From: Vulcanimicrobiota bacterium
GTDB lineage: Bacteria > Vulcanimicrobiota > Vulcanimicrobiia > Eremiobacterales > Eremiobacteraceae
Length of the DNA: 64,000 nt
Direction: 5' to 3'
Assembly (NCBI GenBank): GCA_963812135.1
Contig: CAWETU010000001.1
Location: forward strand, 1,280,001-1,344,000
Positions 8,755 to 27,384 of the stretch are shown here, in pieces (the first letter of the stretch is position 1; each line of letters opens with the position of its first letter). A program made the position numbers and the translations under genes. The notes beneath the pieces were generated by a model, which saw only the letters and a program-made list of their open reading frames with translations, did no database searches and was not told where the DNA came from.

Positions 8755-8775
8755 ATCGGCAGAGGTGCAAAGACG

Positions 8776-10297: not shown

Positions 10298-10451
10298 AAC
10301 CGATCATGGCGAGCGCGATTCCCCGCACCCGATCGCCTATTAGGCCCCACGGCCGATTGTTTGGCAGTCGATAGTCACAACAACGTCTATGTCCTTAGGA
10401 CTGACTCGACGAAACCCGGCAGCCCGTCGTTATGAGAAAGGCTTAGGCGTC

Positions 10452-10979
10452 ATGGCTAGACATCTGCTTGCGACGACGGCGCTCGCGCTGACCGTCGCTC
10501 TCTTCAGCGTTGGCGCGTCTGAGCCGGTCCGACCCATCGATCAATTGAGTTGGCTTGTGGGCGGCGTTTGGACAGCCCAACCACCCGCATCGACCGACGG
10601 CCCGCAGCGCATCGATGTGCGCTACGAATGGCCACCGAATCACAGCTTTGTCCGCTTCACCACGCAATTCGTGATGGCCAACGGCTCGAACGCTGGGTAC
10701 GCGGGCGACCTGTTTTACGATCCTGCTGACAAGGCTCTGAAGATATGGTACATGGATGAGCACAACGCGATAACGCAAGGCCCGATGAGCGTCAGCGGCG
10801 ACAAATGAACGATCTCATTCCGCGACTCGGGAGATATCGTCGGCGTCACGGGACCCGTCGATTATCGAGTGGATATCGTCCGCACAGCACCTGACACGTA
10901 CCAGTGGACGCTTTTCGCAAACGTCGCGCAGACTTGGAAGAGGGTGTTCGCGCTCGTGTACCAGCGCTCCCAAGCATAG
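10452..10979 (+). pseudogene. Secreted hypothetical protein interrupted by in-frame TGA (10806-10808)
   Basis: LSWLVGGVW...SGDK*TISFRD...LVYQRSQA reads on in frame. Confidence 0.6.
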
Positions 10980-11032
10980 CTGGGACGTAGGTAAGAATTC
11001 GGGGACCGCGAAAAGCCGCTACAATGGCGCGT

Positions 11033-11109
11033 GGCGCTGTAGCTCAGTTGGTTAGAGCGCCTGCCTGTCACGCAGGAGGTCGTCGGTTCGAGCCCGATCA
11101 GCGTCGCCA
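11033..11109 (+). tRNA. tRNA-Asp(GTC)
   Basis: Full cloverleaf, anticodon arm CCTGC-CTGTCAC-GCAGG, encoded CCA; TACAAT -10 at 11020-11025. Confidence 0.97.
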
Positions 11110-11113
11110 CTTG

Positions 11114-11145
11114 AAACCCGCGTAGCATAAGGCTTCGCGGGTTTT
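11114..11145 (+). terminator. Intrinsic terminator-like hairpin after tRNA-Asp
   Basis: AAACCCGCG...CGCGGGTTTT. Confidence 0.7.
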
Positions 11146-11511
11146 CTTATCCTCGGATGCAGATCAGCGGATTGGGTTTTGACAGCCTAATGACAGCCCA
11201 TAGTGCGTTCCGAGCTCGGAATGCCGCGGTTTTCAGCGCTTCGAGTCAGCACACAGCTTGGCGAGGGAGCGGAGGGCGGAGGGATCATCTTGTGACAAGA
11301 CCGCGTTTTGCGGCGCTGCTCGTCTTCGTTTAACGGGGCAAGCTTGAGGCGATTTCGTAGCTTCCTCCCGGGAATTCAGCCACGATGCCTAGCCGTCCGT
11401 GGAAACGTCGCGCGGTGCGCGCGATAGCAGAGTTCCGCGAGAAACTCGACGAACCGGTCCAAGCGTGCTCTCAAGGTAACCCATCACCCGTCTAACCAGG
11501 TCGTCACGTTT

Positions 11512-13950
11512 ATGGATAAAAACGTCAGAGCCAGCGACTTAGCCGAGACGAATCTTTCGCCTCGCGAGCGTGAAGTTGCCGAACTGGTCGCCCACGGCAA
11601 GTCGAATCGCGCGATCGCCGAGACGCTCTTTTTGAGCGAGCGTACCGTCGAGACTCACGTCAGTTCGATCCTCAGCAAATTGAGCTTCCACTCGCGCGTG
11701 GAGCTCTTGGCCGCAGTTCTTCAAGGCGACGCCAACGTCGATTCGCTGGCCGGTCGGCATCATGTGCCTTCGAACAATCTTCCGATTCAGCTCACGAGCC
11801 TTCTCGGACGCGAGCATGACATCGACGATGTCAAGTCGCTGCTTGGACAGCACAACCTCGTGACAGTGTCGGGCGCCGGCGGCGTCGGCAAGACACGGCT
11901 CGCGCTGCGAGTCGGGGCCGACGTTCTCGACCACTACAGCGACGGCGTGTGGTTTGTCGACCTTGCGCCCATCAGCGACCCGGAGTTGGTCTCAAGTGTC
12001 ATTGCTCGAGTGCTTGGCATGAGTCAGCAGGAGGATCGCAGAGTCGATCCATCGATTCCGCGATGGCTCAAGAATAAGCAGTTGCTGCTCATCCTGGACA
12101 ACTGCGAACATCTCCTCGGGGCGGTCGTGAGCATTGCAGAGAATATCGCGCGGTCGTGCACAAAGGTGCGAATGCTCGCCACCTCGCGACAGGCGCTTGA
12201 CATCGGCGGCGAGGTGGTGTATCGGTTGCCGTCACTGACCACTCCCGATAAGGCCGTGATCGTGCAGGCAGCCGAAGCGCCGCAATACGCCGCCATCGCG
12301 CTCTTCGTCGACCGAGCGAAGGCCGCCGACAATCACTTTGCGCTCACCGATGAAACTGCGCCAACCGTTGCCGACATCTGCCGCCGCTTAGACGGAATCC
12401 CGCTGGCGATCGAGCTAGCCGCGGCCCGCGTGAAGGTGCTCTCCATCCCAAATATCGCGCGCCGCTTGAACGACCGCTTTAAGGTCCTCACCGGCGGCAG
12501 CCGCACTGCGGTACCGAGACAGAAGACGCTCGGCGCGCTCATCGACTGGAGTTATGATCTGCTCGATGCCGACGAGCAAGCGCTCTTCAAGCGCCTTGGC
12601 ATCTTTGCCGGCGGTTTCAGCTTGGCTGCGGTGGCGGCAGTTCATGCTGGCGATGATCTCGACGAGACCGGCATCGTGGACCTGCTCTCATCGTTGACCG
12701 ACAAGTCGCTAGTCGTAGCGGATACGAGCGGGGAGCAGGAACGTTACCGGTTGCTTGAATCCACCCGCGCCTATGCTTTGGAAAAACTTGACGCTACCGG
12801 CGAACGCGAGCAACTCGCTCGCCGTCATAGCGACTACTTTCGCGCCGAAGCGGAGGCGGCTGACAAGCGATTCGGTACTGGCTCGACCGGCGCGTGGCTT
12901 ACGGTCGTCGAGCTCGAACTCGACAACTACCGCGCGACGCTTGAGTGGGCGCTCACAAACGGACATGATGTGGCGCTCGGTGGCGAGCTCGCCGGCGCGT
13001 TGGAACATCTCTGGTTTGACGGCGGACTCCTGGGCGAAGGGCGCTATTGGATCGGTCTTGCGCAAGCCGAACTTGACGAGGTCGAGCAACCTCGCGTGGC
13101 GGCCCGTCTTTGGCGTGCATCAGCCCGGCTGTCCGGTGGTAAGCGACGGCACGCGTGCGCGGAGCGGGCTCTGACGCTATATCAATCGATAGGAGATGAC
13201 GACGGGGCGACCTGGGCGCTGCTCGATCTTGTGCACGGTCTGCTCGACCTCGGCCGCATTGAGCAGGCTGATGAGGCGAACTCACGCGCGCTAACGGCCG
13301 CACGCGAGCAGGGAAATAAATGGGGCTTGGCGTTGTCCCTGCTTCACCAAGCTGGCATCGATGAATCTCGCGGTGATTTTGCGGCAGCGCGTTTGTCGTA
13401 TGTTCAGGCGCTTGAGACATTCGAAGCCATCGGAGACGAAGCTGGGATCGCGTGGGTTTTAGCGGACCACTCTGAGCTAGAATTCGAAGATGGTCGCGTT
13501 GAACAGGCGCTGCGCCTGGTGCGCGAGGCCATCGATATCGACGCGCGTGGCAAGAATGTATCGCACCTAGCTCTTGACCACAGCGAAAAAACGGTATTCT
13601 GCATTGCGCTCGGAGATCTCACAGCAGCGCGTGAAGCTGCACGCGAAGCACTGCGCTGGGCGCTGAAAGCTCACTCCGTGCTTCTCATGCTCGCGCTGCA
13701 GCACTTCGCGCTGCTTGGAGCGCTCGGCGGACAAATATCGAGTGCAGCACGCCTTATCGGATACGTCAACGCGAACTACGAGGAACTCGAGCTCCAGCGT
13801 GCGAGCATCGGGGCCGCCGGCATGTGGGGCCTCGAGAAGCTCATGGCAACGCTGCGCGAGCATCTCAGCGACGCCGAGATAGATGAACTCGCGGCCGAAG
13901 GCGCGGCTTGGTCCGAGGATCGCACGCTCGAAGCAGCGCTCGAGATGTGA
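11512..13950 (+). CDS. LuxR-HTH + STAND/NB-ARC ATPase + TPR regulator
   Basis: LSPREREVAELVAHGKSNRAIA; GAGGVGKT; LLILDNCEH; LDGIPLAIELAAAR. Confidence 0.9.
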   Translation: MDKNVRASDLAETNLSPREREVAELVAHGKSNRAIAETLFLSERTVETHVSSILSKLSFHSRVELLAAVLQGDANVDSLAGRHHVPSNNLPIQLTSLLGREHDIDDVKSLLGQHNLVTVSGAGGVGKTRLALRVGADVLDHYSDGVWFVDLAPISDPELVSSVIARVLGMSQQEDRRVDPSIPRWLKNKQLLLILDNCEHLLGAVVSIAENIARSCTKVRMLATSRQALDIGGEVVYRLPSLTTPDKAVIVQAAEAPQYAAIALFVDRAKAADNHFALTDETAPTVADICRRLDGIPLAIELAAARVKVLSIPNIARRLNDRFKVLTGGSRTAVPRQKTLGALIDWSYDLLDADEQALFKRLGIFAGGFSLAAVAAVHAGDDLDETGIVDLLSSLTDKSLVVADTSGEQERYRLLESTRAYALEKLDATGEREQLARRHSDYFRAEAEAADKRFGTGSTGAWLTVVELELDNYRATLEWALTNGHDVALGGELAGALEHLWFDGGLLGEGRYWIGLAQAELDEVEQPRVAARLWRASARLSGGKRRHACAERALTLYQSIGDDDGATWALLDLVHGLLDLGRIEQADEANSRALTAAREQGNKWGLALSLLHQAGIDESRGDFAAARLSYVQALETFEAIGDEAGIAWVLADHSELEFEDGRVEQALRLVREAIDIDARGKNVSHLALDHSEKTVFCIALGDLTAAREAAREALRWALKAHSVLLMLALQHFALLGALGGQISSAARLIGYVNANYEELELQRASIGAAGMWGLEKLMATLREHLSDAEIDELAAEGAAWSEDRTLEAALEM

Positions 13951-13953
13951 GTA

Positions 13954-14379
13954 CTAATGTTGGCGTCTGTCTATGGGCGCCCCGTGTGCGACTGCAAGCT
14001 GGAGCGGGGAGCCGGTGAGGTAGATCGCCGTCGCAACAAAGCCGCCCACGGGCCAGGCCACGACGCTAGTTGCCAAACGCGCCACAAGATACGCGGCGCC
14101 GATTGCAAGACCGACGGAGAACAGGTGTAATGCACCCCACACTACCGCGCGCGGTGGATGAACAATCGTGGTTTCATGCGATCCGGCGAAAGCCAGCAAC
14201 CCGACAGTCGCGTACGCCGCGACTGCGCCGAGCAGGAACAGCAGCGCTTCGCTCGCGCTCGGGACGCCGTGCGCGTGCGTCAGGACCGCTCCGGAAGTCC
14301 AAACCGTTAGCGTGTAGCCGTACGGAGCCGCGCTCGCGACCACCGTCGCGCGCACGGCAGATTTATAGCGCTCCCACAC
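13954..14379 (-). CDS. Small membrane protein, hypothetical
   Basis: Four hydrophobic segments, PYGYTLTVW. Confidence 0.6.
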   Translation of the reverse strand: MWERYKSAVRATVVASAAPYGYTLTVWTSGAVLTHAHGVPSASEALLFLLGAVAAYATVGLLAFAGSHETTIVHPPRAVVWGALHLFSVGLAIGAAYLVARLATSVVAWPVGGFVATAIYLTGSPLQLAVAHGAPIDRRQH

Positions 14380-15330
14380 TACGACCGCGCTCCGTTGGCG
14401 TCGAGAACACTGCGCACATCAAACTGGCGTCGCAACACCCACGAAAACGTGGGCCGAAAGACCAGCCTTAAGACCAGGTTCTGCACCGCAACACCAAACG
14501 ATGTGCTCGGCAGGAACGATTTCGCGAACGAACGCGCGGCTTTTTGTTGCGACTCGACATATGGTCGGAGCTGCCGCTCATAACGTGCGAACGCTGCCTC
14601 CGGGGATGATTCCTCTCCTAGACACTGAGCGAGGATGTATGCTCCGCCCATGGCAAGGGATGCGCCTTGACCAGCGTCGGGCAGTCGCACGCATCGCCCA
14701 CGAGCGCCACGCGCCCTTCATGCCAGCGCGGGATTTGAATTTGCGCCACCGTGTCCATGAACACGTCGTCGCCGTCGGGCGCATCGTCGAGAAGGTCGCG
14801 CGTTATCCAGCCGACCCCCTCAAATTCGCGCTGCAACCGAGGTACGCGTTCCGCCCGAGGGACGTGCAAGCGATCGGTCGTCTCGAACATGAAGAAAGCA
14901 AACGCGCTACCCGGAGCATCACCCGCATAGAGTCCGACCATATGCCCAGGCTCGAGATACATCGTCCAGGTCGGCCCGAGCTGATATCGATCGGATACTC
15001 GGTAACTCGCTACGCAATATCCTAGGGGCCACAAAAACGCGTCCTCCCCGCCGAAGACAAGCGCGCGCACGCTTGAATGGATGCCGTCAGCGCCGACGAG
15101 CACGTCGCATGACAGTTGCGATCCGTCGTCGAGCTTTACGTGCACCCCTTTGTCGTCGGATTCGAGTGCGGTGATCGTCGTATCGAATCGGACGTCGCTC
15201 TGGTCCTTGACCGCGTCGAAGAGCACGCTTTCAAGCGTTTGATGCATGAGCGCCATGTAGCGTCCACCCAAGATCGCTCGGATGCGGTCGATGGATAGCG
15301 ACGCAATAGGCTTTCCATTCTTGCCGACGG
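14379..15330 (-). pseudogene. FAD-dependent monooxygenase, 5'-truncated and frameshifted near 14670
   Basis: LVGADGIHSSVR, RVALVGDAC, then GQGASLAM in another frame; no N-terminal GxGxxG. Confidence 0.8.
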
Positions 15331-15640
15331 GTGTTACCGCGGAGTTACTTGCAACGCTTGACCTTGGCCCTGAGATCGAGGGTATGGCAGGGCGCCAACT
15401 TCGAATGCGTATGGTGACTTTCGAGCCGGGAGGCGTCTTCGGACCGATTCACGACCATAAAGACAGACCAGGCATCGTCTACATACTGCAAGGAACGATC
15501 ACTGACCATCGAAACGGAGTCGCTACGGACTATGGGCGGGGAGTGGGCTGGCCCGAGGATAGGAGCACCACACACTCGCTCGAGAACAGAGGAACGATTC
15601 CGGCGGTGGAGATCTCGGTCGATATAGTCAGGCGGCACCC
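15327..15640 (+). pseudogene. Cupin-domain gene fragment ending at the att repeat
   Basis: RMRMVTFEPGG..HDHKDRPG..HSLEN; no native start, runs into the tRNA repeat. Confidence 0.7.
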
Positions 15641-15718
15641 CTGTCACGCAGGAGGTCGTCGGTTCGAGCCCGATCAGCGTCGCCACTTGAAACCCGCGTA
15701 GCATAAGGCTTCGCGGGT
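15640..15718 (+). repeat. att copy: 79-bp direct repeat of 11064-11142 (tRNA-Asp 3' half plus hairpin)
   Basis: Exact match by eye. Confidence 0.95.
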
Positions 15719-15841
15719 CTCTTCTTGATTTTGCCGTTTTAGGCTTGACACCAATTGGAGATTGGCGACCCACGGTGCCGACGTTACGTAGCCCCTATCG
15801 TCTGTCAATTGGGTACAAAAGGACCGCATAGAAGGCTTGCG

Positions 15842-16564
15842 CTAACCGGTCACCAACCGCGCAATGAGAAACGCCACGGTCGCGGCGACGCCGCCGATAA
15901 TGACCGTCTGAACCGCGCTGCGAAACCAGGTCACACCCGTCAATGCACCCTTCACTGCACCAAAAGTGAAAAGAGCGAGAAGTGTAACAAGTGATGAGAC
16001 GTATAGAGCCTGTCTTGAATCTTGGACCAACATATAGGGCAGTAGCGGCACCAATCCACCGACCACGTATGCGCCGCCTATGGTGAGCGCGCTCATCGGG
16101 GCCCTCTTTCGATCGGGCTCCTCGAGACCCAGCTCGAATCGCATCATGAAGTCGACCCAGCGTTGTCGGTCGGCGCTAAGACGGGTAGCGGCGTTGCGCG
16201 CATCCTCGTCGTTCAACCCGTACTCACGAAAAATGCTGACGACCTCGGCCTTTTCAGCCTGCGGCATCTCCTCGACTTCCCGTAGCTCGCGACGCTTCTC
16301 GCTTTCGAAATGCTCGACGTCGGTGCGGGCCGCGAGATAACCGCCAAGACCCATCGATATCCCGCCTGCCGCCAACTCCGCGATGCCGGCGGTTACAACG
16401 ATGTGCGAAGCGGCGATCGCCCCAGTGATCCCAGCAGCGAGCGCGAAGGGCACGGTCAGACCGTCCGACATGCCAATGACCACGTCGCGAACAGCTGCGG
16501 ATGCTTTGGAGTGTCTTTCTACGTGTTGGGGCTGCGGCGTGCTGCGCGGAATTCGTGCGCTCAT
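15842..16564 (-). CDS. VIT1/CCC1 iron/manganese transporter
   Basis: VRDVVIGMSDGLTVPFAL, ISMGLGGYLA, FMMRFELGL. Confidence 0.92.
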   Translation of the reverse strand: MSARIPRSTPQPQHVERHSKASAAVRDVVIGMSDGLTVPFALAAGITGAIAASHIVVTAGIAELAAGGISMGLGGYLAARTDVEHFESEKRRELREVEEMPQAEKAEVVSIFREYGLNDEDARNAATRLSADRQRWVDFMMRFELGLEEPDRKRAPMSALTIGGAYVVGGLVPLLPYMLVQDSRQALYVSSLVTLLALFTFGAVKGALTGVTWFRSAVQTVIIGGVAATVAFLIARLVTG

Positions 16565-16613
16565 ATCCTACGATGCCTCTGTTTCCTGTTCAGCGGGTTA
16601 CGCGATTCGGAGC

Positions 16614-17864
16614 TCAGTGGGCTTGGACGAACGCGAATCCTATCCAGGCCGCCAACAGCATGAGCACAAGCCCCGGGATGACCTGCAGCGCAAAGCGGGA
16701 GCCGCCGATCCAAGCGGCGATGATAGCTTTCGTCACAGCATTGGTGGTCAGGCCTGCAAGAATGGGAATCGCGGCCTCCGGCGCTGTGATCCTATCGGCG
16801 GCCACGAGAGAAGCCACGGACACGGCCGCGGAATGAGTATCGGCGAAGCCTGCGATCGCTGCGGCGGCGATCAGTCCTTTTTCGCCGAACCACGCGTTGA
16901 GTGCCGCCGAGACGACGACGACGACGGTGATCGTCGTTGCCAAAGCAAGCGCGGTCCAAAGATTGAACGGCCGCCCCAGTCGCTTCAGGTCGGGCGTTTC
17001 GTGGCGGATGCTCGTGATCGTCAGCAGCGTTCCGTAAGCGATTGCCGCTATGCCGGCGGCGATCAGCGGAACACGCAATTCGAGAAAGGTGGGCTCGCTA
17101 ACCGCGGCCAGCACTATCCCCATCAGCACAACGGTAGCAACACTTGAAAGGACGGCGCCTGCAACGGCTGACCGCGCGACCGAAGGTTCCTTTGCGGCTA
17201 GGGCGCCCATCGCGCCGATCGTGGCCGAGCTCGAGACAAAGCCTGACGCAAGACCGGCAAGAGGAAGCCCGAAACGGGTGCCAAGCAGCCGAACCGCGAC
17301 GTATCCAGCGGCGCTGATCGACATCATGAGGATGACGATCATCCAGACAGTGCGGGGATTTATCGAATCAAAGGGCCCAAGATATCGGTTCGGGACAAGG
17401 GGCAACACGACCAGAACCGCAGCTGCGAAGATGAGTCCGTCCGTCAGCTCTTCTTCGCTTAACACGTTGCGGACGAAGCGATGCAGACTTGTCCGAGCAG
17501 CCAATAGGATCGTCACCACAACGGCGACGCCTGCGGCGATCGCGGTATCCTGCTGGGCCAGCGCGCCTAAGAGAACGGTCAGCAAAAGCGCTGCTTCTGA
17601 TGTGACGCCGGGATCTCTGTCGTGACTTCGCAGATAGGCCATGGCACAGAGGCTAGCGGTTGCAAGCATCGTGACGGCTAGCAGTACATAGCCGCCCAGC
17701 ATGAAACTCACGCCCCCAAGGAGTGCCGCCACCGCGAACGTTCTGATCCCCGCCGCAGAGCGCCCCGGAGACTCCGTCTTTCGGCGCTCACGTTCGGCGC
17801 CGATCAGCAGGCCGATGGCGAGCGCGCTGCCCAGCCGGAATACCGGCTCGTCTGTGATCACCAC
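16614..17864 (-). CDS. MgtC/SapB-DUF4010 family membrane protein
   Basis: GLLIGAERE, AGIRTF, GFVSSSAT. Confidence 0.85.
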   Translation of the reverse strand: MVITDEPVFRLGSALAIGLLIGAERERRKTESPGRSAAGIRTFAVAALLGGVSFMLGGYVLLAVTMLATASLCAMAYLRSHDRDPGVTSEAALLLTVLLGALAQQDTAIAAGVAVVVTILLAARTSLHRFVRNVLSEEELTDGLIFAAAVLVVLPLVPNRYLGPFDSINPRTVWMIVILMMSISAAGYVAVRLLGTRFGLPLAGLASGFVSSSATIGAMGALAAKEPSVARSAVAGAVLSSVATVVLMGIVLAAVSEPTFLELRVPLIAAGIAAIAYGTLLTITSIRHETPDLKRLGRPFNLWTALALATTITVVVVVSAALNAWFGEKGLIAAAAIAGFADTHSAAVSVASLVAADRITAPEAAIPILAGLTTNAVTKAIIAAWIGGSRFALQVIPGLVLMLLAAWIGFAFVQAH

Positions 17865-17982
17865 GTGCGATTCAACCTACAGGGCGATAAAGAGAACTGC
17901 GCCCACAGTTACGAAATTCTTGCCTCGTGAAAGCAGTGTGTTTCGGGGAGGGTCGGGGTCCCTGCCGTCTGAGGGGACCGAT

Positions 17983-19134
17983 ATGCAGGCGTCGTCGCTC
18001 GTGAGCGCGCGTTTGGGGACCGCGCTCCAGGTGCTCGCGGTGATCGTGCTCGCTGCAGTCATCCTCATCGGTTTCATCCACCTCCTTGGGCGGCTGCACA
18101 CTTTGACGACGATTGTCATCGGCGCTATATGCTTGTGCTACGTGATGGTGCCGGGGGTGCGGCGTCTCAACGAGCGTCTACCGATGTGGGCGTCCATAGC
18201 CATCGTCTATGCGGCGGTCATCGTGATCGTCGTCTCGTCGATCGCATTTATCGTGCCGGCGGTCAGTGGTGACGTCAAGCAGTTCGTCCAGGACGCGCCC
18301 GGGATCGCCCGCGACGCGCAAACCACGCTCTCCGATCCCACTAGTCCGATCGGGGCACGGCTGCCGCCTTTCATCAGAGATTATATCGCGGGACTGCCGA
18401 CGGAGTTCGTCACGCTCGTAGATCGCTACGGCGCCGACGTCGCGAAGAGCTTCTTCGGTGTGTTCATGTCCGCGATATCAATTCTTGCGCTCTTCGTGGT
18501 CGTCCCGATCGTGGCGATCTATCTCATGATCGAGAGCGACTCGATGCATCGTGGGATCGTCAGCTTGATCCCTCCCTCTGCAAGGCCCAAGGCGCTGGCG
18601 ATCCTCGATGGCATCAATGCAGTTCTCGGTGGATTCATCCGAGGCCAATTGCTCGTCGCGCTCATCGTCGGCACGTTGACCGCTGTCATGTTGACGCTTC
18701 TCCACGTTCGTTTCGCGATCTTGATCGGCCTTATTGCGGGCCTTCTCAATGTGATCCCCTATGTCGGCGCGTTCGCCGGTGCAGCGCCTGCAGTGCTGAT
18801 CGCGCTTATCACCAGTGGTCCGTTGAATACGCTCTTCGTGATCATCGGATTCGTCATCATCAATCAGCTCGAAGGACATCTCATCGCACCAAACGTCGTC
18901 GGTCCAAGCGTCGGCCTCTCGCCGCTGGCGGTGATCATCGCGTTGCTCGCGGGCGGCGAACTCTTCGGACTGCTGGGCCTGCTCGTCGCGGTGCCGGTCG
19001 CTGGCATCATAAAGGTGGTATTCGTCACCCTCGTTCCGCGATATGCGCCCCTCGAATCCGCGCCAGCGCCGCCGGCCAGCGGCAGCCCGCCACCGGGGGC
19101 AGTTACCGATGACGAGGCAGGCTGGTCTGGATGA
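17983..19134 (+). CDS. AI-2E family transporter
   Basis: GGFIRGQLLV, NVIPYVG, NQLEGHLIAP, GLLGLLVAVP. Confidence 0.9.
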   Translation: MQASSLVSARLGTALQVLAVIVLAAVILIGFIHLLGRLHTLTTIVIGAICLCYVMVPGVRRLNERLPMWASIAIVYAAVIVIVVSSIAFIVPAVSGDVKQFVQDAPGIARDAQTTLSDPTSPIGARLPPFIRDYIAGLPTEFVTLVDRYGADVAKSFFGVFMSAISILALFVVVPIVAIYLMIESDSMHRGIVSLIPPSARPKALAILDGINAVLGGFIRGQLLVALIVGTLTAVMLTLLHVRFAILIGLIAGLLNVIPYVGAFAGAAPAVLIALITSGPLNTLFVIIGFVIINQLEGHLIAPNVVGPSVGLSPLAVIIALLAGGELFGLLGLLVAVPVAGIIKVVFVTLVPRYAPLESAPAPPASGSPPPGAVTDDEAGWSG

Positions 19135-19282
19135 AAGCGAACGCGCACCGCTTCTACGCTCACGTCAAGGTCAACGAGATATGCTTACGCGAGCTTATGG
19201 CGCTATGGACTGAGCGCTTGTCCGGTTGGCAGGAGCCAAGCTGAGGGCAAGATTCCCGCGTAGAATCTCTCTCCAAACCTTA

Positions 19283-19311
19283 TTGACCCGCATATCGATA
19301 CATGATACACT
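19283..19311 (+). promoter_or_regulatory. Sigma70 promoter of higBA-1 (probably leaderless)
   Basis: TTGACC-17 nt-TACACT with TG extension; GTG start 7 nt downstream. Confidence 0.7.
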
Positions 19312-19317
19312 TTCATC

Positions 19318-19605
19318 GTGGGGTGCTTCGCCGACCGCGGCACCGAGGACCTAGCAAACGGTTTCGATACTAAAGCTGCCCGGGCTTCATGCCCCAAGGC
19401 AATTTGGCCAGTTGCGAGACGGAAGCTTGACATGGTCATTTATGCGGGAGGTCTTGGAGATCTGCGTTCGCCTGGCAACCAACTCGAAGCTCTGAAAGGG
19501 GATCGACCCAGCCAACACAGCATTCGCGTGAACAAGCGGTATCGTGTATGCTTCGTTTGGTCCGATCAAGGAGCACAAGAAATTGAAATCGTCGACTATC
19601 ATTAG
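19318..19605 (+). CDS. higB: HigB (RelE/ParE superfamily) toxin
   Basis: ARRKLDM, PGNQLEALKGDR, HSIRVNKRYRVCFVW, EIVDYH. Confidence 0.88.
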   Translation: MGCFADRGTEDLANGFDTKAARASCPKAIWPVARRKLDMVIYAGGLGDLRSPGNQLEALKGDRPSQHSIRVNKRYRVCFVWSDQGAQEIEIVDYH

Positions 19606-19612
19606 AACCGAT

Positions 19613-19921
19613 ATTTTCGTTCCATCTGCGCGGCGACCCACAAGCCCCGGCACCATGCTGGTCGAGGAGTTCATGAAGCCTCTGGGGCTCACGCAGCAGG
19701 CTCTCGCGGATGCCATGGCTGTTACGCGGGTCCGTGTCAATGAAATCGTCAACGGCCGGCGTGGTATTACGGCCGACACGGCGCTGCGACTGGCAAGGGC
19801 GCTGGGTACCTCCGTTGACCTCTGGCTCAGGCTTCAGCTCGCATGTGATCTCTTCGACGCACTTCACTCGCCAAAAGCGAAAGCCATCGCCAAGGTTCGA
19901 CGGATCATCCCAGCCGCTTGA
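19613..19921 (+). CDS. higA: HigA antitoxin (start uncertain: ATT 19613 or ATG 19655)
   Basis: RPTSPGTML.EEFMKPLGLTQ, NEIVNGRRGITADTALRLA. Confidence 0.85.
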   Translation: MFVPSARRPTSPGTMLVEEFMKPLGLTQQALADAMAVTRVRVNEIVNGRRGITADTALRLARALGTSVDLWLRLQLACDLFDALHSPKAKAIAKVRRIIPAA

Positions 19922-20081
19922 GCTTTGATCTGACGGCATGTGGCTTAATGTGGCTTAGCGCCCAAAGAAACGCGGGCGAATGTCGGCGAACAGCCGTTAA
20001 CAGTAGAGCGAGGATCCAGGGGCTGTGCCGAAATTCTTCGGCGGACGCTCGGGGAAACTGGAGGACAGGCCGAAAACGCCC

Positions 20082-20253
20082 GTCACGCAGGAGGTCGTCG
20101 GTTCGAGCCCGATCAGCGTCGTCACTTGAACCCGCATCGCGTAAAGCGTTGCGGGTTTTTTCTTGACTTTAGCGTTTCAGGCTTGACACCAATTTTGACA
20201 CCAAATGGAAGATTGGCGACCCTCGCTGCCGTCGTTACGTAGCTCCTGTCGTC
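20082..20253 (+). repeat. att copy (tRNA-Asp 3' half) with hairpin, TTGACACCAA x2 and a flank homologous to about 15724-15803
   Basis: gtcacgcaggaggtcgtcggttcgagcccgatcagcgtcgtca. Confidence 0.92.
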
Positions 20254-20271
20254 CGGCATGGCTGAGCGCTC

Positions 20272-20323
20272 GAGCGTTGGCTGAGTCAGAATGTCGTTGG
20301 TTCGAGTCCAACTCGGGGAGCCA
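20272..20323 (+). pseudogene. Degenerate 3' fragment of a different tRNA (Asn-like)
   Basis: T-arm GTTGG-TTCGAGT-CCAAC and end CGGGGAGCCA; anticodon and 5' half missing. Confidence 0.6.
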
Positions 20324-20324
20324 C

Positions 20325-20370
20325 TAAAAAAGTAAACCCTCTGCGCAAAGCGTGCGGGTCTACTTTTTTG
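20325..20370. terminator. Bidirectional terminator-like hairpin
   Basis: AAAAAAGTA...TACTTTTTT. Confidence 0.6.
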
Positions 20371-20381
20371 CTAGACGTTGG

Positions 20382-21065
20382 TCATCTGGTGCCCATTGAT
20401 TGGTGCATCGGACAGTTCGCCATTGCGCCCATCATAGACCCACTCTTCCCGGCGCCGCTCATTAGCTGACCCATGTTGCCTTGCATCTGGCTCATGCTGC
20501 CGGGCATCTGGCCCATACGCATATGACCCATGCCGCCATGCATCTGGTCCATGCCGCTGGGCATCGGCGATGGCGCCATCATTGCATGTGCGCCGTGATC
20601 CTTCACTTGCGCGTCGAACCACTCGTGCACCGCGGAAACTAGTGAAGCATCCTGCGTCGTGAACGCGATCTGCGCGCCGGCCGGTAGCGCGCTATAGCGC
20701 ACCTCGAGGCGCGTTGCACTCGCGCTCAATGCCTGGAGACCGGGCATGTCGCTGCCGTGGATGTAAGCAGGATCCGAGAAATTACCTGCCGCGAAGAGCT
20801 TGCTCTCCTTTTCCAGGTGCGAGCGGACCAACGCGATGTCTGCGGTATCGCTCGGGTCCTTTACTACAATCGTCTCGACGCCACCGGACGACGTCTTGCG
20901 GAAGACGTGCATGGTCTTGTTCATATCGAACGGCATGACTTGCTTGCTATGCTGTTCGACCGTAGTGGATTGGCTATCGTCCGCGCGAACGGTGGCGCCG
21001 GCCAAGGCCGTGCCGATGATCAACGCGAGTGCCGCCAGGAGAATGGTCTTCTTATCGGTTTTCAT
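20382..21065 (-). CDS. Secreted protein with Met/His-rich C-terminal tail
   Basis: Signal peptide, VMPFD..KTMHVF, HGSDMPGL, HEWFDAQVKDHG, Met-rich tail ending CPMH. Confidence 0.75.
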   Translation of the reverse strand: MKTDKKTILLAALALIIGTALAGATVRADDSQSTTVEQHSKQVMPFDMNKTMHVFRKTSSGGVETIVVKDPSDTADIALVRSHLEKESKLFAAGNFSDPAYIHGSDMPGLQALSASATRLEVRYSALPAGAQIAFTTQDASLVSAVHEWFDAQVKDHGAHAMMAPSPMPSGMDQMHGGMGHMRMGQMPGSMSQMQGNMGQLMSGAGKSGSMMGAMANCPMHQSMGTR

Positions 21066-21513
21066 AGATCACCTTTACAAGAGTGTCAACCGCGCGCAGT
21101 ACCGACGTCCGGTCCGCGCGCGGTATGCCTTGGAATAGCCGTGAGAACATCCGGCGTCGAGAGTCGGCCAATTGCGCGGCCGCTTTACGCCCGGCGGGCG
21201 TGAGCCTCAGCAGAAGAGCCCGCCCATCGCCGTCGCTGCGGGCCCGTTTGATCCATCGGCGCCCGGCAAGAGCGGCGACGAGCCGGCTGACGGTGCTCTT
21301 CTCGAGCGCGAGTCGCCGCGAGAGCTGTGTCTGTGATAACGGTGCTTGCTGAGTGAGTTCGAGTAGCGCGTGCGCCTCCGCAACCGAGACCGGTCGCCCG
21401 CACGGCGTACGATCGGGCGCGTGCAGCCCGAGCGAGCGGACCAACCGGACCATCTGCCCCTGGAAGTCTGCTGCGGTTGCGCGGCCATTCTGGCCGCGGA
21501 GGATGGTGCGCAT
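21052..21513 (-). CDS. MarR family regulator
   Basis: TPCG, LEKSTVSRLV, DGRALLLRLTPAG. Confidence 0.88.
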   Translation of the reverse strand: MRTILRGQNGRATAADFQGQMVRLVRSLGLHAPDRTPCGRPVSVAEAHALLELTQQAPLSQTQLSRRLALEKSTVSRLVAALAGRRWIKRARSDGDGRALLLRLTPAGRKAAAQLADSRRRMFSRLFQGIPRADRTSVLRAVDTLVKVIYENR

Positions 21514-21532
21514 TAGTTGTACCATACAACTA
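21514..21532. promoter_or_regulatory. Inverted repeat, probable MarR operator
   Basis: TAGTTGTA-CCA-TACAACTA abutting the MarR start codon. Confidence 0.7.
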
Positions 21533-21629
21533 TATCACCGGGGGTTCCTGCCGGCGAAACACTTGCCCACAGACCGGCCCTTGGATGGCGTTTCGGCCGG
21601 GGTGACTTGTCGTGTTACGGGGGGAGGAC

Positions 21630-21908
21630 ACCCTTGCGCCAAAGTCGTCTTGTGGGTCGATCAAAAGCAAGGTAGCAGAAGGACGTGTCGACCGGACCGT
21701 GGTGATTCGATTCTCGCTCGACGAAACGTTCGACATAGGCGAGGACACAGGCACGCCCGTCGTAGAGGACTACGCCGATAAGATGCCGTTTGCTTTCCAA
21801 GGCACGCTGCACAGGTTCGTCGTCGTGCTTCAACCGCAGAAGTTGAGCGAGGAAGACCAGCAACGCCTCCTGGCGGAACTAGCGCGCGCGTCAATGGCGG
21901 TTCACTGA
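21630..21908 (+). pseudogene. Arylsulfatase-like C-terminal fragment
   Basis: VAEGRVDRT..FSLDETFDIGEDTGTPV..DY..PFAFQG. Confidence 0.65.
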
Positions 21909-22142
21909 GAAGGCATCACGGGGGCTTTCATCACCATCAATGCGCCGGCTGCATTTCGGTAGGGCGGGTGGCTGCCTATCCCCGGTTTTTCTGACGCCAA
22001 AGTTGACACCAAATGGACGCTCCGTTGGCGCACACCGGCGCACATGCGGCAGACAAGAATATCCGGGTAACCCCTAATGAATGCCACGTCTGCGCATGTT
22101 GGCGCACATGCGCGCACGACCGCGCACATCGAGGGGAATTGT

Positions 22143-22187
22143 CTGTCAAACAGGAGGTCGTCGGTTCGAGCCCGATCAGCGTCGCCA
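22143..22187 (+). repeat. att copy (tRNA-Asp 3' half, anticodon arm altered)
   Basis: ctgtcaaacaggaggtcgtcggttcgagcccgatcagcgtcgcca, followed by a hairpin. Confidence 0.92.
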
Positions 22188-22269
22188 GTCAAAAGCCCGT
22201 GAAGTGAAACTCCGCGGGCTTTCCTTTCCTTGGCATCCCCGTCGCGTTTGACTAGTACCATATACAGTA

Positions 22270-22299
22270 TTGCAATCGTGGTATCATATATGATACTAT
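22270..22299 (+). promoter_or_regulatory. hicAB promoter with palindromic operator
   Basis: TTGCAA...TG-A-TACTAT; perfect palindrome GTATCATATATGATAC at 22281-22296. Confidence 0.7.
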
Positions 22300-22306
22300 A
22301 GTTTTG

Positions 22307-22534
22307 GTGGAGAAACGGCTTCAGCGGCTGTACGACCAAGTAGCCAAGAATCGCAAGAATTGCCGCTATGAGGATCTGGAGCGGTTGTTGCTAGCTGCGG
22401 GGTTTACGCTCCGAAAAACGGGTGGATCGCACATGATCTTCAAGCGCGGTTCAAGCATACTGAGCGTGCCGAAGCGGAAACCCGTCAAAGAGCACTATGT
22501 CAGTGAGGCCCTCTCAATGATCGCTGAGACCTGA
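22307..22534 (+). CDS. hicA: HicA toxin
   Basis: LLLAAGFTLRKTGGSHMIFK..LSVP. Confidence 0.85.
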   Translation: MEKRLQRLYDQVAKNRKNCRYEDLERLLLAAGFTLRKTGGSHMIFKRGSSILSVPKRKPVKEHYVSEALSMIAET

Positions 22535-22563
22535 AGAGGCCGCCCTAACTGGAGAAGTATGAT

Positions 22564-22941
22564 ATGGCAAACGTAACCGTGAAGCGAGACAAGATAAAAA
22601 AATATCTCGCGAAGCCCTATGCCCGGGAATTGATTCGGAACGAAGACGGGACCTGGTTTGCTCGAGTCATGGAGCTCAAGGGTTGCATGACTGAAGGCAA
22701 TACGAAAGAGGAGGCTCTCAAGAATCTTGATGATGCGATGAAAGGCTGGATTGATGTCGCAATTGCAGATGGCGAGTCCATACCCGAGCCACTCGAATCG
22801 CGCTCTTTTAGCGGCAAGTTTGTGGTTCGCGTTCCGCGGTCGCTGCATCGGAACTTGGCAAAGCATGCAGAGGTCGAGGGCGTAAGCTTGAATCAAGTCG
22901 TTGTGGCGGCCTTGGCCAGAGAAATCGGGCAGAAGAAGTAA
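22564..22941 (+). CDS. hicB: HicB antitoxin (RHH C-terminus)
   Basis: ELKGCMTEGNTKEEAL, IPEP, SGKFVVRVPRSLH, GVSLNQ. Confidence 0.9.
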   Translation: MANVTVKRDKIKKYLAKPYARELIRNEDGTWFARVMELKGCMTEGNTKEEALKNLDDAMKGWIDVAIADGESIPEPLESRSFSGKFVVRVPRSLHRNLAKHAEVEGVSLNQVVVAALAREIGQKK

Positions 22942-22954
22942 ACGGGCGGGATTG

Positions 22955-23081
22955 AAGCGTCCATAATCAGGATCGATTTGGTGCCATCGCCGGGCGTCGG
23001 GAACGCAAACAGATCAGTGTAGTCTAAGCGCGCATCCCCATGGGGGAACGTAACGTCGGGACCCGAGTAATGGTGGGACAT
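22955..23081 (-). pseudogene. DUF4331-like N-terminal fragment
   Basis: MSHHYSGPD..DARLDYTDLFAFP, AAGGAG RBS, truncated at the hicB boundary. Confidence 0.65.
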
Positions 23082-23309
23082 AGTTTATTTTCTCCTTCGC
23101 TGGCAGTATTCCCGATTTCAGCGCCGGACGGCCGATCAATGGTACTGCTGCATATGGCGATGTGCAAGGACACGTATGTTCGCATCGCGGCTGCTTTTCA
23201 CTACGCAGAAGTGTTTGAAGAGCGCCGACAGGTATTGCGCTTCAAGGTGGAGAGAGCGACGCTTTCTGACGTACAAGCGTAGGTTCCGAGTTCTAAGAGG
23301 AGGCGCACC

Positions 23310-24350
23310 ATGCACGAGGATCTCAACCTCGGCCGCCGCAAATTCTTTGGGAAGGCGGCGATGACCATCGTTGCCGCTGAGCTCGGCATGCTAAGCCCTG
23401 CGAGCGCGCAATTGAGCAGCGCTCCAGTAGCCGTGACGCCGGCGAGTCCGAAGAATACCTCGTTTGCGTCCATCAAACAAGTCAACGCCGGCGTTCTCAA
23501 CATCGGGTACGCTGAGGATGGACCGGCCGATGGGCAGCCAGTAATCCTGCTGCACGGATGGCCCTTTGACATCCACGCGTTCGTCGATGTCGCTCCGCTG
23601 CTGGCGAAGGCTGGGTTTCGCGTCATCGTTCCGTATCAACGTGGCTATGGCTCGACGACGTTCCTCTCTGCCGACACGTTTCGCAACGCTCAGCAGTCGA
23701 TTTGCGGCGAAGATGTCGTCAACTTGATGGACGCGCTCAAGATCAAGAAGGCGATCATCGGCGGTTTCGATATCGGATCGCGAACGGCGGCCGTCGTGGG
23801 GATCCTTTGGCCCGAGCGGGTCAAGGCGTTGGTGCTCGTTAGCGGCTATTTGATCGCCAACGTACCGGCAAACAAGCTACCGGCACCGCCGAGAGCCGAA
23901 TATGCCTTTTGGTACCAGTGGTATTTCTCGACGCAACGCGGGCTCTTAGGCTACACGCAGTACACCTACGATTTCAGCAAACTCGTCTGGACACTCCAGT
24001 CGCCGAAATGGCAGTTCAGCGATGCGACATACGATCTCACGGCGGCGTCGTTCAAGAATCCCGATCATGTGGCGATTGTGATACACAACTACCGTTGGCG
24101 CATCGGCCTCGCGGCAGGAGATCCGAAATACGACAGCTTGGAGAACAAGCTCTTCGCGGGTCCTGCCATCGATCTGCCCACAGTCACGATCGCAAGCGAT
24201 TTCGACGGCGCGAACGCGAGCGGCGCTGCATACCGGAGCAAGTTCACGGGCAAGTACTCGCACCGGATCCTCAGCGGCATCGGTCACGATGTGCCACAGG
24301 AGGCGCCGCAAGCGTTTTCGGACGCGATCGTCACCGTCGCCGGCTATTAG
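23310..24350 (+). CDS. Tat-exported alpha/beta hydrolase (epoxide-hydrolase-like)
   Basis: GRRKFFG signal, LLHGWP, RGYG, GFDIGS, GIGHDVPQEAP. Confidence 0.88.
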   Translation: MHEDLNLGRRKFFGKAAMTIVAAELGMLSPASAQLSSAPVAVTPASPKNTSFASIKQVNAGVLNIGYAEDGPADGQPVILLHGWPFDIHAFVDVAPLLAKAGFRVIVPYQRGYGSTTFLSADTFRNAQQSICGEDVVNLMDALKIKKAIIGGFDIGSRTAAVVGILWPERVKALVLVSGYLIANVPANKLPAPPRAEYAFWYQWYFSTQRGLLGYTQYTYDFSKLVWTLQSPKWQFSDATYDLTAASFKNPDHVAIVIHNYRWRIGLAAGDPKYDSLENKLFAGPAIDLPTVTIASDFDGANASGAAYRSKFTGKYSHRILSGIGHDVPQEAPQAFSDAIVTVAGY

Positions 24351-24369
24351 GTGCCCCGCAACTGAAGTA

Positions 24370-24531
24370 TGGGCGGTTACGGGAGATGAGCTGGCCGCGC
24401 ACTTGGCTCCACACTTTGTCGGATGGGCGCTTCCCGACTACTACGTTTTCGTGGAGTCGATCCCACACGCGTCCGTGGACAAGGCGGACAAGAAGGAACT
24501 CCGTGACGACTACAGGGATTGGCGGCCCTAA
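24370..24531 (+). pseudogene. Acyl-CoA ligase C-terminal fragment
   Basis: HLAPHFVGWALPDYYVFVESIPHASVDKADKKELR. Confidence 0.6.
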
Positions 24532-24547
24532 CTGAATCTCATTCGCC

Positions 24548-25147
24548 ATGAGGTGGCTGCCTATGCGTCGTCTGCTTTGTTTTACGTTGGTGGTTATCGC
24601 ACTTAACATCGCTTTGAAAGCCGCACAGGCGTCGGTGGATTTGGACCGTTGGTTCCTTGACGCCACCGCGTCTCAGGCCAAAGTGACGGCGACACAACTC
24701 GCGAAGCCAGACTTCTTGGGCGGCAGTTCGCTGTCAAGCAATTGCCATTTCCCTTATAATGGCAAGCTGCCGGCCTTGGCCGGCGTGTGGCAGCTGTTAA
24801 AGTACGACCGCAAGCATCAAATAGGCTTGGCATACGCGACGACGGACCAATGCAGCTCCGCCCTCTTCAAAGCTTCTCCGCCGCCTGCTTCCGTACCAGA
24901 TGGCGATCTGTCGCAATATGGCACCGCGCGAGGATTGAAGATCGGCAGCAGCTATGCCCAAGTGCTTTCTACGTACGGGCTGCCCGCCAGGCACGGGCAG
25001 CACTTCGTGGCTGCGTATAGCGCGAGCGTGCCCTCCACGGACCTCAAAAACAAGCCGATCAAGCTTCCCGAGATCATCACGTTGGTGATCGAGGACGGCA
25101 GAATTTCGTCGATAACGATCTACGTCGACGAAGGCGGCCTGTTCTAA
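24548..25147 (+). CDS. Secreted hypothetical protein
   Basis: Signal peptide; TARGLKIGSSYAQVLSTYG pattern. Confidence 0.65.
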   Translation: MRWLPMRRLLCFTLVVIALNIALKAAQASVDLDRWFLDATASQAKVTATQLAKPDFLGGSSLSSNCHFPYNGKLPALAGVWQLLKYDRKHQIGLAYATTDQCSSALFKASPPPASVPDGDLSQYGTARGLKIGSSYAQVLSTYGLPARHGQHFVAAYSASVPSTDLKNKPIKLPEIITLVIEDGRISSITIYVDEGGLF

Positions 25148-25181
25148 GGATGGTTTCCAAGCTCGGTCCCGGCTGCATAGA

Positions 25182-27061
25182 TCAGTTGCACGCGGGCGCG
25201 AGATCGTCGTCGAGATGGTTGCCGTGCCCTTTCTTGCGGTCAGCGTCGACCGATCGTTGTGCAGCTCGCAAATCTGGGTCACGGTCGCGAAGTTGTAGGG
25301 TCCGAGGCTTGTATCGGAAGCCGAAGTGTATTGCCAGGGGATGACCGCCTTCACGAAGCCGGGGTCGAACGACCGGTGTGGTTGCGCTCCCGACCAAACC
25401 GAGTCAGTCAATTTGAGCAGCCATCCCTTGCCCAGCGCGAACGATCTGGCTTCAATCCACGGCGGATTAAGGATGGGATGATCCCAGCCTTCGTGCCACT
25501 TGCCGTCCTCCCACCCGTAATAGCCGGTCGCGCTGAATTGCACGTCTTTCTCGCGGACCTTGATGTATTGGAATGAGACCGTGTCGGGTTGGAGGTAGAC
25601 GTTCGCGTCGAAGCCGACGCTGGGAATGCCTTGGAAGTGGTGGAAGAAATCGGCATCGGGCGGCGGCGTGGCTTGATTGGCGGGGATGACCTCAAAGAGC
25701 GGATCCTGTGGCGTCAATATCTTGAAGGTGATCGTCGCGGTGGCATGTGTCACTGCGTCAACGGCCTCGATCGTCACCGCCGGTGCAGCTGTGATGCTCG
25801 CGGTGTACGTGACGGTCTTGCCACTGGTCGATGAGAGTTTCCCAAGACCGCTCGCATTCGACCACTGCGCGCTGTTGCCCGAGAAGGTCAGCGTCACCGG
25901 CTCGTTGACGCCGAGATCGTGGCGTGACCGATCAGCCGGCTCCGTCGCGACCGTCTCTGAAGTGATTTCTGCGCTCGGCGACGGTGAGGGCGTCGGCTGC
26001 GGCGGAGCGCCGCCAGGTTGCGGCGCTTGTGTCAGCGGCTGCACCGAATCGGAGCCCGGGTTGTTCACCACGTTCGAAAACGGAACGTTTGCACCGCCGG
26101 ACGGAGGACCGAGGCCGAACAGCCGCGTGCCGCTGACTTGTGAGGCCGCAAGAACGCGGACCTCGTACGTGCCGGGTGTGGCGAAGTTGCCGCTCGTCAC
26201 GAAGCGGACGTAGACGCGATCTGAGTAACGGCTCCACGGCGTGTCCCCCGAACCAGCGTGCTCCGGCGGCGCGTAGGGAATCAGTTCGCGTACCAGCTCG
26301 TTAAATGTCGGTGGAGGCTGCGCCATCTCCTCGCGTAGCCGCTGCATCTCCAGCACAGCCTGCCCGACCGAGCCGAGGCGGCCAAGCGCACCGTCGAAGG
26401 ACGGCATGCCTGGCACTTTCGACGCGACTTGATCGTACTGCGCGCGGATGCTCGTGTAGACATCCGCGTTGAGACGAGAGCGAAAATCCGGAATGACCCG
26501 ATCGACGATCGCGCGCTGGGCCTGCGGCATCGCGCTGTACGGAAGCCCCGCTTGGATGTCCCACGAGAGCACCTGCACTGCGCGATGATCGAGTTGATAC
26601 GATGGAATGCGCGAGTTGAGCGCTCGGAAGATGTCAGCCGCGGAGCCGCGCAGGGGCGCGACGAGGTAGCGGTGGCCGCTTGGGCTATGCGCGTGCGCCT
26701 TCATGCAAAAGACGTCAACGCTGAAGGCGTAGTCGCCTGGCGGCAGCGAGACCGTGCCGTCTGTTGAGGCGCGAAGCAGCGCGGTGATGTTGCGCGCGCT
26801 CGCTGCGGCGAACGGCAGTCCAGGCAGGTTGGCGGTTGGATACGCGTCTGATGGCGACACGACAATAGGAAGCTGATCGCCGATCGTCTTGCCGAAGGAC
26901 GAGAGCGCGGCGCGAACCGTGGCATCCTGCGCGGCTCCGGCCGGATTGGGAATCGGAATCGGGAACGCGACACTCGACGTGGCGGTTGCAAGCAGGATGA
27001 TGCAACCCGCGATCAACGCGTATGCCAATGCCGTCCGGAACCTCACCGCGAGCCGCCACAC
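25182..27061 (-). CDS. Secreted modular protein with thioester-domain-like N-terminus (probable 1-bp frameshift near 25200)
   Basis: VFCMK, VQVLSW and VQPL motifs; paralog at 48258-50103; alternate-frame end APACN-TGA avoids overlap with 24548-25147. Confidence 0.65.
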
Positions 27062-27222
27062 AGGTCAGCCGTTCTTTAGTGCAATCGCGTTTCCCACCCT
27101 GAAACGCGGAGATGCAACGCCGCGCCCTAAGTCGCCGTCCGCCGCAGTCCGTGCTCGTACGATCTCTCCAATGGCCCGTCCATGCCCGTGCGGGTGTGTG
27201 CGCTCAAGTGCAAATGGCGTGC

Positions 27223-27265
27223 GTCACGCAGGAGGTCGACGGTTCGAGCCCGATCAGCGTCGCCA
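27223..27265 (+). repeat. Distal att copy (tRNA-Asp 3' half)
   Basis: gtcacgcaggaggtcgacggttcgagcccgatcagcgtcgcca plus hairpin AGGAACCC..GGGTTCCT. Confidence 0.92.
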
Positions 27266-27384
27266 GGTCTAGGAACCCGTGCAGCATGCTTCATGGGTTC
27301 CTTCGTCTAACCAAGCCATTATAGCCCGCTTATTTCGGCGATCCCGCGAAATTGGATTAGTATCCTAGTAGAAAGGGGCATCGT

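Follow-up and report, generated by a model that had tools for sequence, protein, structure and literature searches.

Cis-mobilizable elements (CIMEs) and their accretion in tandem were defined for ICESt1/ICESt3-type elements (PMC5704250), and a model of accretion followed by decay has been published (PMC5704250, PMC3146451). CIMEs keep their att sites without integration and transfer genes, accumulate as successive site-specific insertions into the same target, and form chimeric junctions between element families (PMC5704250). In the ssrA arrays of Dehalococcoides, many tandem islands lie between repeats of a tDNA 3' end, next to which the sequence is conserved, and 15 islands without an integration module were proposed to be CIMEs (PMC3146451). 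The additive flexible islands of Alteromonas (PMC4898812), Actinomarinales (PMC7771536), and Methylopumilus (PMC10872708) hold variable cassettes behind a tRNA, with tRNA-part repeats. Tycheposons of Prochlorococcus show growth seeded at a tRNA, with older elements pushed outward and with fragmented integrases and partial tRNAs, and some cryptic elements of that genus carry little beyond an integrase and an excisionase (bioRxiv 10.1101/2020.12.28.424599). Integrons are likewise arrays of small accessory units that lack a recombinase of their own.

Here we describe an array behind a tRNA-Asp gene in a 64,000-nucleotide stretch of a Vulcanimicrobiota genome (the window), which resembles each of these systems in the respects just named. 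Like a CIME stack, it consists of direct-repeat units bounded by att cores, with neither intact integrase nor transfer genes inside them. Compared with the ICESt1/ICESt3-type stacks (PMC5704250), it differs in having no ICE in the array, no intact integrase in any of 28 complete units, and a small median unit size of 2.8 kb, a contrast that published per-island sizes may alter. The Dehalococcoides arrays involve a tmRNA target, a T-loop crossover, and the serine integrase DsiB, and 16 of their islands retain a module of six genes (PMC3146451), whereas the arrays studied here combine a tRNA-Asp anticodon loop with relics of tyrosine integrases. Going by their descriptions, the additive islands (PMC4898812, PMC7771536, PMC10872708) are set apart from our locus by its putative arm-type sites and end families, which can be typed and linked to a clade of integrases. 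Tycheposons come with integrases and in many cases with genes for replication (bioRxiv 10.1101/2020.12.28.424599), none of which is intact in these arrays. Relative to integrons, the locus has no IntI and no attC, and its boundaries are tRNA-derived cores with arm-type repeats. The array thus likely belongs to a known kind of hotspot rather than being a new integron.

Arrays of this sort are under-counted by Islander, which rejects candidates that lack an integrase or are shorter than 2 kb (PMC4383910); no unit in the window carries the integrase gene demanded of each island. In literature that leaves most subscription journals outside its coverage, we found no description of this locus or lineage (Eremiobacter, WPS-2).

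Results

Copies of the tRNA-Asp 3' part delimit four units

BLAST within the window found four direct copies of the tRNA-Asp 3' part (E values from 4e-41 to 4e-16), which start at tRNA positions 30 to 35, in the anticodon arm, and divide the array into units of 4576, 4439, 2063, and 5078 bp, measured start to start (Table 1). These results bear out the initial annotation, which had described four direct repeats of the tRNA 3' half beginning in the anticodon arm, each followed by a hairpin, and segments of about 4.5, 4.4, 2.0, and 5.0 kb; the starts now stand at 15640, 20079, 22140, and 27223. It had overlooked the paired arm-type repeats, the copy at 10243-10297, a tRNA-Asn fragment, and the broken cargo genes. 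The search for further att copies that it had proposed found no tRNA-Asp fragment in the 2.79-Mb genome (98% complete) beyond the array and the degenerate 10243-10297 copy. As in islands of the Islander type, an intact tRNA accompanies displaced 3' fragments with an anticodon-centred site.

The anticodon loop is a known integration subsite in tRNA genes (PMC4383910). In 11 of 12 cores of end type A, the sequence departs from the tRNA immediately 5' of the loop, which indicates the loop, CTGTCAC, as the inferred 7-bp crossover segment. Core 4 has two substitutions at the edge between anticodon loop and stem that are absent from the 11 other type-A copies and are confirmed by an identical contig in read run X1. 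Core 2 with its 33-bp hairpin is 100% identical to the tRNA end along 79 bp. Altered loop bases in core 3 and core 5 are not counted as signs of decay, as the core 3 variant also occurs in genome G002 and the core 5 right end recurs in contigs of run X2.

Core 5 with its hairpin (27223..27301) is likely the oldest displaced tRNA end. Its region is shared with G005, together with the downstream anchor gene, which follows a tRNA-Asp fragment in both G005 (94%) and G006 (89%). On the other side, about 6.7 kb of accessory DNA (4300-11030) precedes the tRNA and contains the degenerate core at 10243; the ferritin-like/CDGSH gene of this accessory DNA lies downstream of the array in G028, and in G029, too, cores precede the tRNA-Asp. 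Just past the array, at 29629-31198, is a split remnant of an IS605-family TnpB-like gene, with PF12323 and PF07282 in separate frames.

Table 1. Features of the tRNA-Asp array, in window positions
Feature	Position	Strand	Remarks
Degenerate copy of tRNA-Asp 3' end	10243-10297	+	Short, with hairpin; 5' of tRNA; old boundary
Intact tRNA-Asp(GTC)	11033..11109	+	ARAGORN; single integration target
Unit 1 left end	11110..11200	+	Terminator-like hairpin, then paired TGACAGCC at 11180 and 11191
LuxR-HTH/NB-ARC/TPR regulator	11512..13950	+	Unit 1; 812 aa
FAD monooxygenase pseudogene	14379..15271	-	Unit 1; profile 94-294 and 295-378 of 392
Cupin gene	15282..15640	+	Unit 1; lacks own stop, reads directly into core 2
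Core 2	15640-15685	+	BLAST; direct copy of tRNA-Asp 3' part
Core 2, hairpin, type-A left end	15640..15807	+	Single arm copy, 15746-15754
Unit 2 cargo	15842..19921	.	VIT1, MgtC/DUF4010, AI-2E transporter, higBA
Type-E right end	19939..20078	+	Unit 2; paired TGTGGCTTA at 19939 and 19949, plus spacer
Core 3	20079-20124	+	BLAST; direct copy of tRNA-Asp 3' part
Core 3, hairpin, type-A left end	20079..20256	+	Paired TGACACCAA at 20184 and 20196
tRNA-Asn 3' fragment and own hairpin	20258..20370	+	Inside unit 3; fragment 20258-20323
Unit 3 cargo	20382..21908	.	Secreted protein, MarR regulator, sulfatase scrap
Sulfatase scrap	21612-21908		Unit 3; C-terminal
Type-A right end	21992..22139	+	Unit 3; paired TGAC(G/A)CCAA at 21992 and 22004, plus ~130-bp spacer
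Core 4	22140-22187	+	BLAST; direct copy of tRNA-Asp 3' part
Core 4 and hairpin	22140..22222	+	
Unit 4 cargo	22304..27061	.	hicAB, gene scrap, alpha/beta hydrolase, secreted protein, large secreted protein
Gene scrap	22896-23081		Unit 4; 42 residues
Core 5	27223-27265	+	BLAST; direct copy of tRNA-Asp 3' part
Downstream anchor gene	27385..28134	+	Cu-amine-oxidase-N/cupredoxin

Hairpins and paired repeats define the ends of units

Every core is followed by a stable hairpin, with folding z scores of -4.0 to -5.3 against 200 shuffles. We judged hairpins by folding instead of a terminator and promoter scan that performed at chance level, flagging those at 20137 and 20340 and leaving the others unflagged. 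At several junctions the cores are flanked by paired direct repeats of 10 to 12 bp. Mycobacteriophage attP sites have a comparable layout, in which pairs of 11-bp repeats, predicted to be arm-type sites, flank the core and a terminator lies between core and arm (PMC3203893). Because loci of related integrases show such pairs (near the integrase stop in 13 of 30), we read the repeats in the array as putative arm sites.

At least four end families meet in the window: A, E, the unit 1 type, and the core 5 type. Arm type TGACAGCC was seen at the unit 1 left end only; the type-A arm, TGACACCAA, occurs at three places (15746, 20184/20196, and 21992/22004). The window's type-A right end is 74 to 83% identical to 11 other copies, and its type-E right end has homologues in G002 and one metagenome contig. 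Three of the four units have unmatched or absent arms: the right arm is missing from unit 1, unit 2 runs from a type-A left end to a type-E right end, and the left arm is missing from unit 4. The arms match in unit 3 alone, where the right core is mutated.

Two independent sequences, the window (20258-20370) and contig L045 (reverse complement, 2828-2879), have a tRNA-Asn 3' fragment immediately within a type-A left end, and the alpha/beta hydrolase of the window has a homologue in a tRNA-Asn array of G005. Islands at tRNA-Asn and tRNA-Asp seem to exchange cargo and att sites.

Cargo genes are accessory, and several are broken

The initial annotation's summary of the cargo as metal transport, regulators, secreted proteins, and toxin-antitoxin modules was confirmed by Pfam on 37 open reading frames (ORFs), which recognized VIT1, MgtC/DUF4010, an AI-2E transporter, LuxR-NB-ARC-TPR, MarR, HigBA, HicAB, and secreted proteins, on genes that point in both directions. 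Paralogues of the 812-aa LuxR regulator recur in other tRNA-anchored units, and genes of unit 2 are present at 95 to 97% identity in run X2, which comes from another study.

Four cargo genes in the window are truncated or frameshifted, and a fifth lacks its stop. The FAD monooxygenase has lost about its first 93 profile positions and carries a frameshift, and the large secreted protein of unit 4, its stop lost, reads beyond the end of its homologues. The hicAB pair forms a 944-bp unit of its own in L047; in the window it is joined to other DNA at the hicB stop. Unit 4 is likely a fusion of several former units.

The genome has one Xer-like recombinase and no element integrase

No integrase lies in any of the four segments, as first reported and now upheld by Pfam on the 37 ORFs, tblastn, and a six-frame profile search. 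The same ORFs include no relaxase, type IV secretion, virion, or replication genes. A search of the genome for a tyrosine recombinase, one of the checks suggested at the outset, returned a single PF00589 protein, which is Xer-like, lies about 220 kb from the array, and is no element integrase. Its best matches are XerC/XerD (288 and 264 bits, below their cutoffs), and it scores 128 bits against IntI, whose cutoff is 265. The genome has no serine recombinase (PF00239, PF07508), no arm-binding N-terminal integrase domain (PF14659), and no IntI above the family cutoff. When a clade profile built from 22 integrases of relatives was run over the six-frame genome, it matched only Xer and a 66-aa C-terminal relic, the sole trace of an element integrase in this genome (G000), which accompanies a tRNA-Thr(CGT) and a 5' fragment 2.5 kb away (C5:228637-231237).

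We also looked for excision joints in the assembled contigs of four read runs; the run that best covers the locus is a soil metagenome, which may be the source sample, and no RNA run was listed. There was no joint of the "go back" kind among 15 of 20 joints, or among 2 of 2; since rare forms drop out of contigs, this result has no bearing either way. Other joints, from 25159 to 27284 in run X1 and from a hairpin to 25193 in run X2, have short sides or unknown inserts.

Relatives carry arrays of different cargo

We fetched tRNA-Asp loci from among the matches listed in a search of 60 relatives and added metagenome contigs by presence of the type-A end, giving a catalogue of 22 family genomes, this one included, and four contigs. 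Its members are kin and not independent, and several assemblies break at core repeats. The catalogue leaves out L043 and L044 (duplicates of L046 and G006), G018 (contig end), five loci from other families, a 43-kb interval in G029, a G011 integrase relic at tRNA-Gly, and a G017 relic upstream of its tRNA. G016 and G013, both unpublished, contribute one fragment each, and G016 also one type-C end.

At least one tRNA-Asp fragment is present in 13 of the 22 family genomes. The 43 catalogued fragments include 35 with an intact CTGTCAC loop, and complete units, counted over relatives, metagenome contigs, and the window, number 28 and span 761 to 8583 bp (median, 2760). This comparison across related genomes, which the initial annotation had called for, found one locus with shared tRNA-part repeats and cargo that differs between arrays, as in additive flexible islands. 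Five relatives (G006, G002, G011, G024, and G008) share synteny with the window in the backbone upstream, and the flanks of the G005 array (L002/L003, C3:630001-670000) are inverted relative to the window and G006. Two tiny units (~470 bp; ~560 and ~900 bp) with one short gene apiece, in which paired repeats were not detected, come after both tRNA-Glu genes of G000 (C1:1113372-1114366 and C1:106244-107777).

Right ends recur with unrelated cargo, in 12 copies for type A and 15 for type C. Those of type A, found in 3 of 201 genomes of the class, all of one genus, are 74 to 93% identical between units and so are not recent copies of one module. Among viral contigs, neither the type-A end nor the tRNA-Asp half had a match, and the G005 integrase had none either. 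From the left end onward, no complete unit recurs in another genome except hicAB (72 to 90%) and the integrase-bearing type-B end (97%), and in the catalogue no integrase-less unit is near identical over its full length in two genomes. Relics of relaxase, conjugation, replication, or phage structural genes were absent from 109 ORFs, a non-exhaustive set chosen by a length rule, in relatives' arrays and the DNA immediately beside them.

Integrase relics and graded left ends point to probable decay

None of the 28 complete units has an intact integrase, and four have relics: a full-length frameshifted gene in G005, fragments in G028, the last ~19 profile positions in L046, and a piece in G029. 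Units cut by contig ends add two truncated integrases, one in G006 (half a gene, at 97% DNA identity) and one in L046. The relics thus form a series from the frameshifted full gene of G005 through the half gene of G006 and the fragments of G028 to the last-helix tail of L046; in G005, the frameshift may have been introduced during assembly. Left ends are graded in the same way when set against the longest copy. Type-B ends keep 604 and 93 bp of a copy with the whole gene, type-C ends run from 120 down to ~35 bp, and type-A ends range between 221 and 43 bp. The end of the integrase gene adjoins the left arm in types B and C, and for these types in relatives, units are derived by deletion from integrase-bearing elements. 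For type A, the window's type, the evidence for such an origin is one truncated integrase, linked at a right end; type-A left ends have no integrase similarity. Three of them (L046:6526-6750, L047:2545-2770, and L045 reverse 981-1190) share ~200 to 220 bp, including a short plus-strand frame that is conserved, and part directly past its stop codon. Unit 1 of G005 is a chimera of a type-B left end and a type-A right end.

Intact integrases of the clade have a tRNA or tRNA fragment nearby in 22 of 30 loci. Those at other tRNAs belong to elements of 5.8 to 18.5 kb, of which one has a tape-measure gene, one a helicase, and two cargo only; other intact clade integrases adjoin VirB9/VirB10 or relaxase genes. 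A parent did not have to be large, as the sole near-complete unit resembling one measures 3.9 kb. We found no intact type-A or type-C parent in its context. The type-A-linked integrase has a full-length relative of 369 aa (76%), encoded on a 12,950-bp contig, and a GTDB scan with the L046 integrase piece returned distant relatives only. In G009, an intact tyrosine recombinase of a different type (330 aa) lies 2.7 kb ahead of a core.

Similarity of right ends stops at the outer arm

Similarity among 11 copies of the type-A right end is 0.64 to 0.90 inside the outer arm and 0.39 to 0.47 outside it. For type C (9 of 13 copies with a readable arm) the values are 0.57 to 0.95 and 0.36 to 0.42, and in both types similarity is at background within ~20 bp of the outer arm. 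No trace of an integrase is left in 11 of 12 type-A right ends, a pattern that random deletion explains poorly; the type-C boundary is consistent with a slot for variable cargo on the side away from the integrase.

Matched arms without an integrase are found in unit 3 of the window, unit 1 of G006 (1.6 kb, nearest the tRNA), a 1.7-kb unit of L045, a tRNA-Val unit of G000, and a 673-bp tRNA-Asn unit of G005. The G000 unit (C1:1237377-1240375; 2.9 kb) lies at tRNA-Val(GAC), has paired TGCTGACCAA at both ends, and carries a LuxR-type regulator like that of unit 1. The G005 unit (L105:9673-10419) has TTAGGGTGCAC-like paired repeats at both ends. A motif of ~50 bp is shared by four sequences (L002:9067, L105:10231, L045 reverse 2420, and L032 reverse 19872); in three units, which belong to two end families, it adjoins the inner side of the right arm. 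We take it to resemble an IS3-family end; insertion sequences may drive some of the deletions.

Discussion

The array is probably a tandem stack of small integrative elements that entered at the tRNA-Asp anticodon loop and each then likely lost its integrase, leaving CIME-like units. Under this model, a circle carrying arm, tRNA 3' half, terminator, and arm would be inserted by its own tyrosine integrase. Crossover in the 7-bp loop would restore the tRNA and displace older units outward, which would make core 5 the oldest. The integrase would be lost by deletion after insertion, and some deletions would have crossed unit boundaries and fused units. Some parents were probably minimal, with an integrase plus cargo in 4 to 17 kb, and at least four end families would have contributed to the window. 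The array is likely immobile in this genome unless a compatible element arrives, and units with intact matched ends could be remobilized by a visiting cognate element. Relics, graded left ends, broken cargo, and the lack of an element integrase all support accretion and decay. Of the two readings first offered for the locus, it is that of decayed tandem islands of tyrosine-integrase elements which gains support, as relatives hold graded broken integrases beside the same kind of ends.

One alternative is that the units are non-autonomous cassettes, each an arm-core-arm attP with captured cargo, moved in trans by a visiting ICE, prophage, or satellite. We consider this unlikely. The sharp right-end boundary, seen with unrelated cargo behind 12 type-A and 15 type-C ends, speaks for it and makes helper-mobilized cassettes possible, as do the recurrence of matched-arm, integrase-less units at tRNA-Asp, tRNA-Val, and tRNA-Asn, the intact loops of most cores (35 of 43), the full-length relative of the type-A-linked integrase, and the close copies of unit 2 genes in run X2. 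However, left ends vary in length and several retain integrase scraps, type-A right ends are too divergent between units (74 to 93% alike) to be recent copies of one module, no integrase-less unit was found near identical over its length in two genomes, and three of the four window units have unmatched or missing arms. The broader proposal, that in this family minimal attP modules, made of paired arm repeats, tRNA half, and terminator and lacking an integrase, captured cargo at the arm edge and were stacked and reshuffled at tRNA-Asp by integrases borrowed from passing elements, is likewise unlikely.

It is very unlikely that, once the first integrations had taken place, turnover of the array came mostly from homologous recombination among the 43- to 79-bp repeats of core and hairpin, by loop-out and by insertion of incoming DNA, with no integrase involved. 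In favor of this reading, core 2 with its hairpin shares 79 bp with the tRNA end where other hairpins differ, the cupin gene of unit 1 reads into the core with no right arm in between, and the hairpin followed by a type-A tail looks recombinant. This process fits one of four junctions, however, and leaves the conserved arms, the start of homology in the anticodon arm, and the integrase relics unexplained. Taken together, the 79-bp identity and the missing right arm mean that the stacking model needs an extra event, and the identity itself suggests a single homology-driven or conversion event.

A true integron-like platform served by a dedicated chromosomal recombinase, Xer-like or IntI, the other reading first offered, is highly improbable and largely refuted: small units in one orientation with toxin-antitoxin modules do resemble cassette arrays, and the genome has one intact tyrosine recombinase, but that protein is Xer-like, falls far below the IntI cutoff, and is distant from the array, PF14659 is lacking, cargo points both ways, units come from several end families, and the attC-like pattern RYYYAAC...GTTRRRY occurs at none of five junctions in a simple pattern test.

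The array is most likely a tRNA hotspot that gathers accessory genes for metal transport, regulation, and toxin-antitoxin functions and keeps them after the decay of their carriers. It adds a set of typed end families and a graded series of decay in an uncultured lineage. If the cassette reading is true, island finders that demand an integrase miss such units by design, and if units with matched arms were moved in trans, they would represent a second route to integron-like stockpiling of genes.
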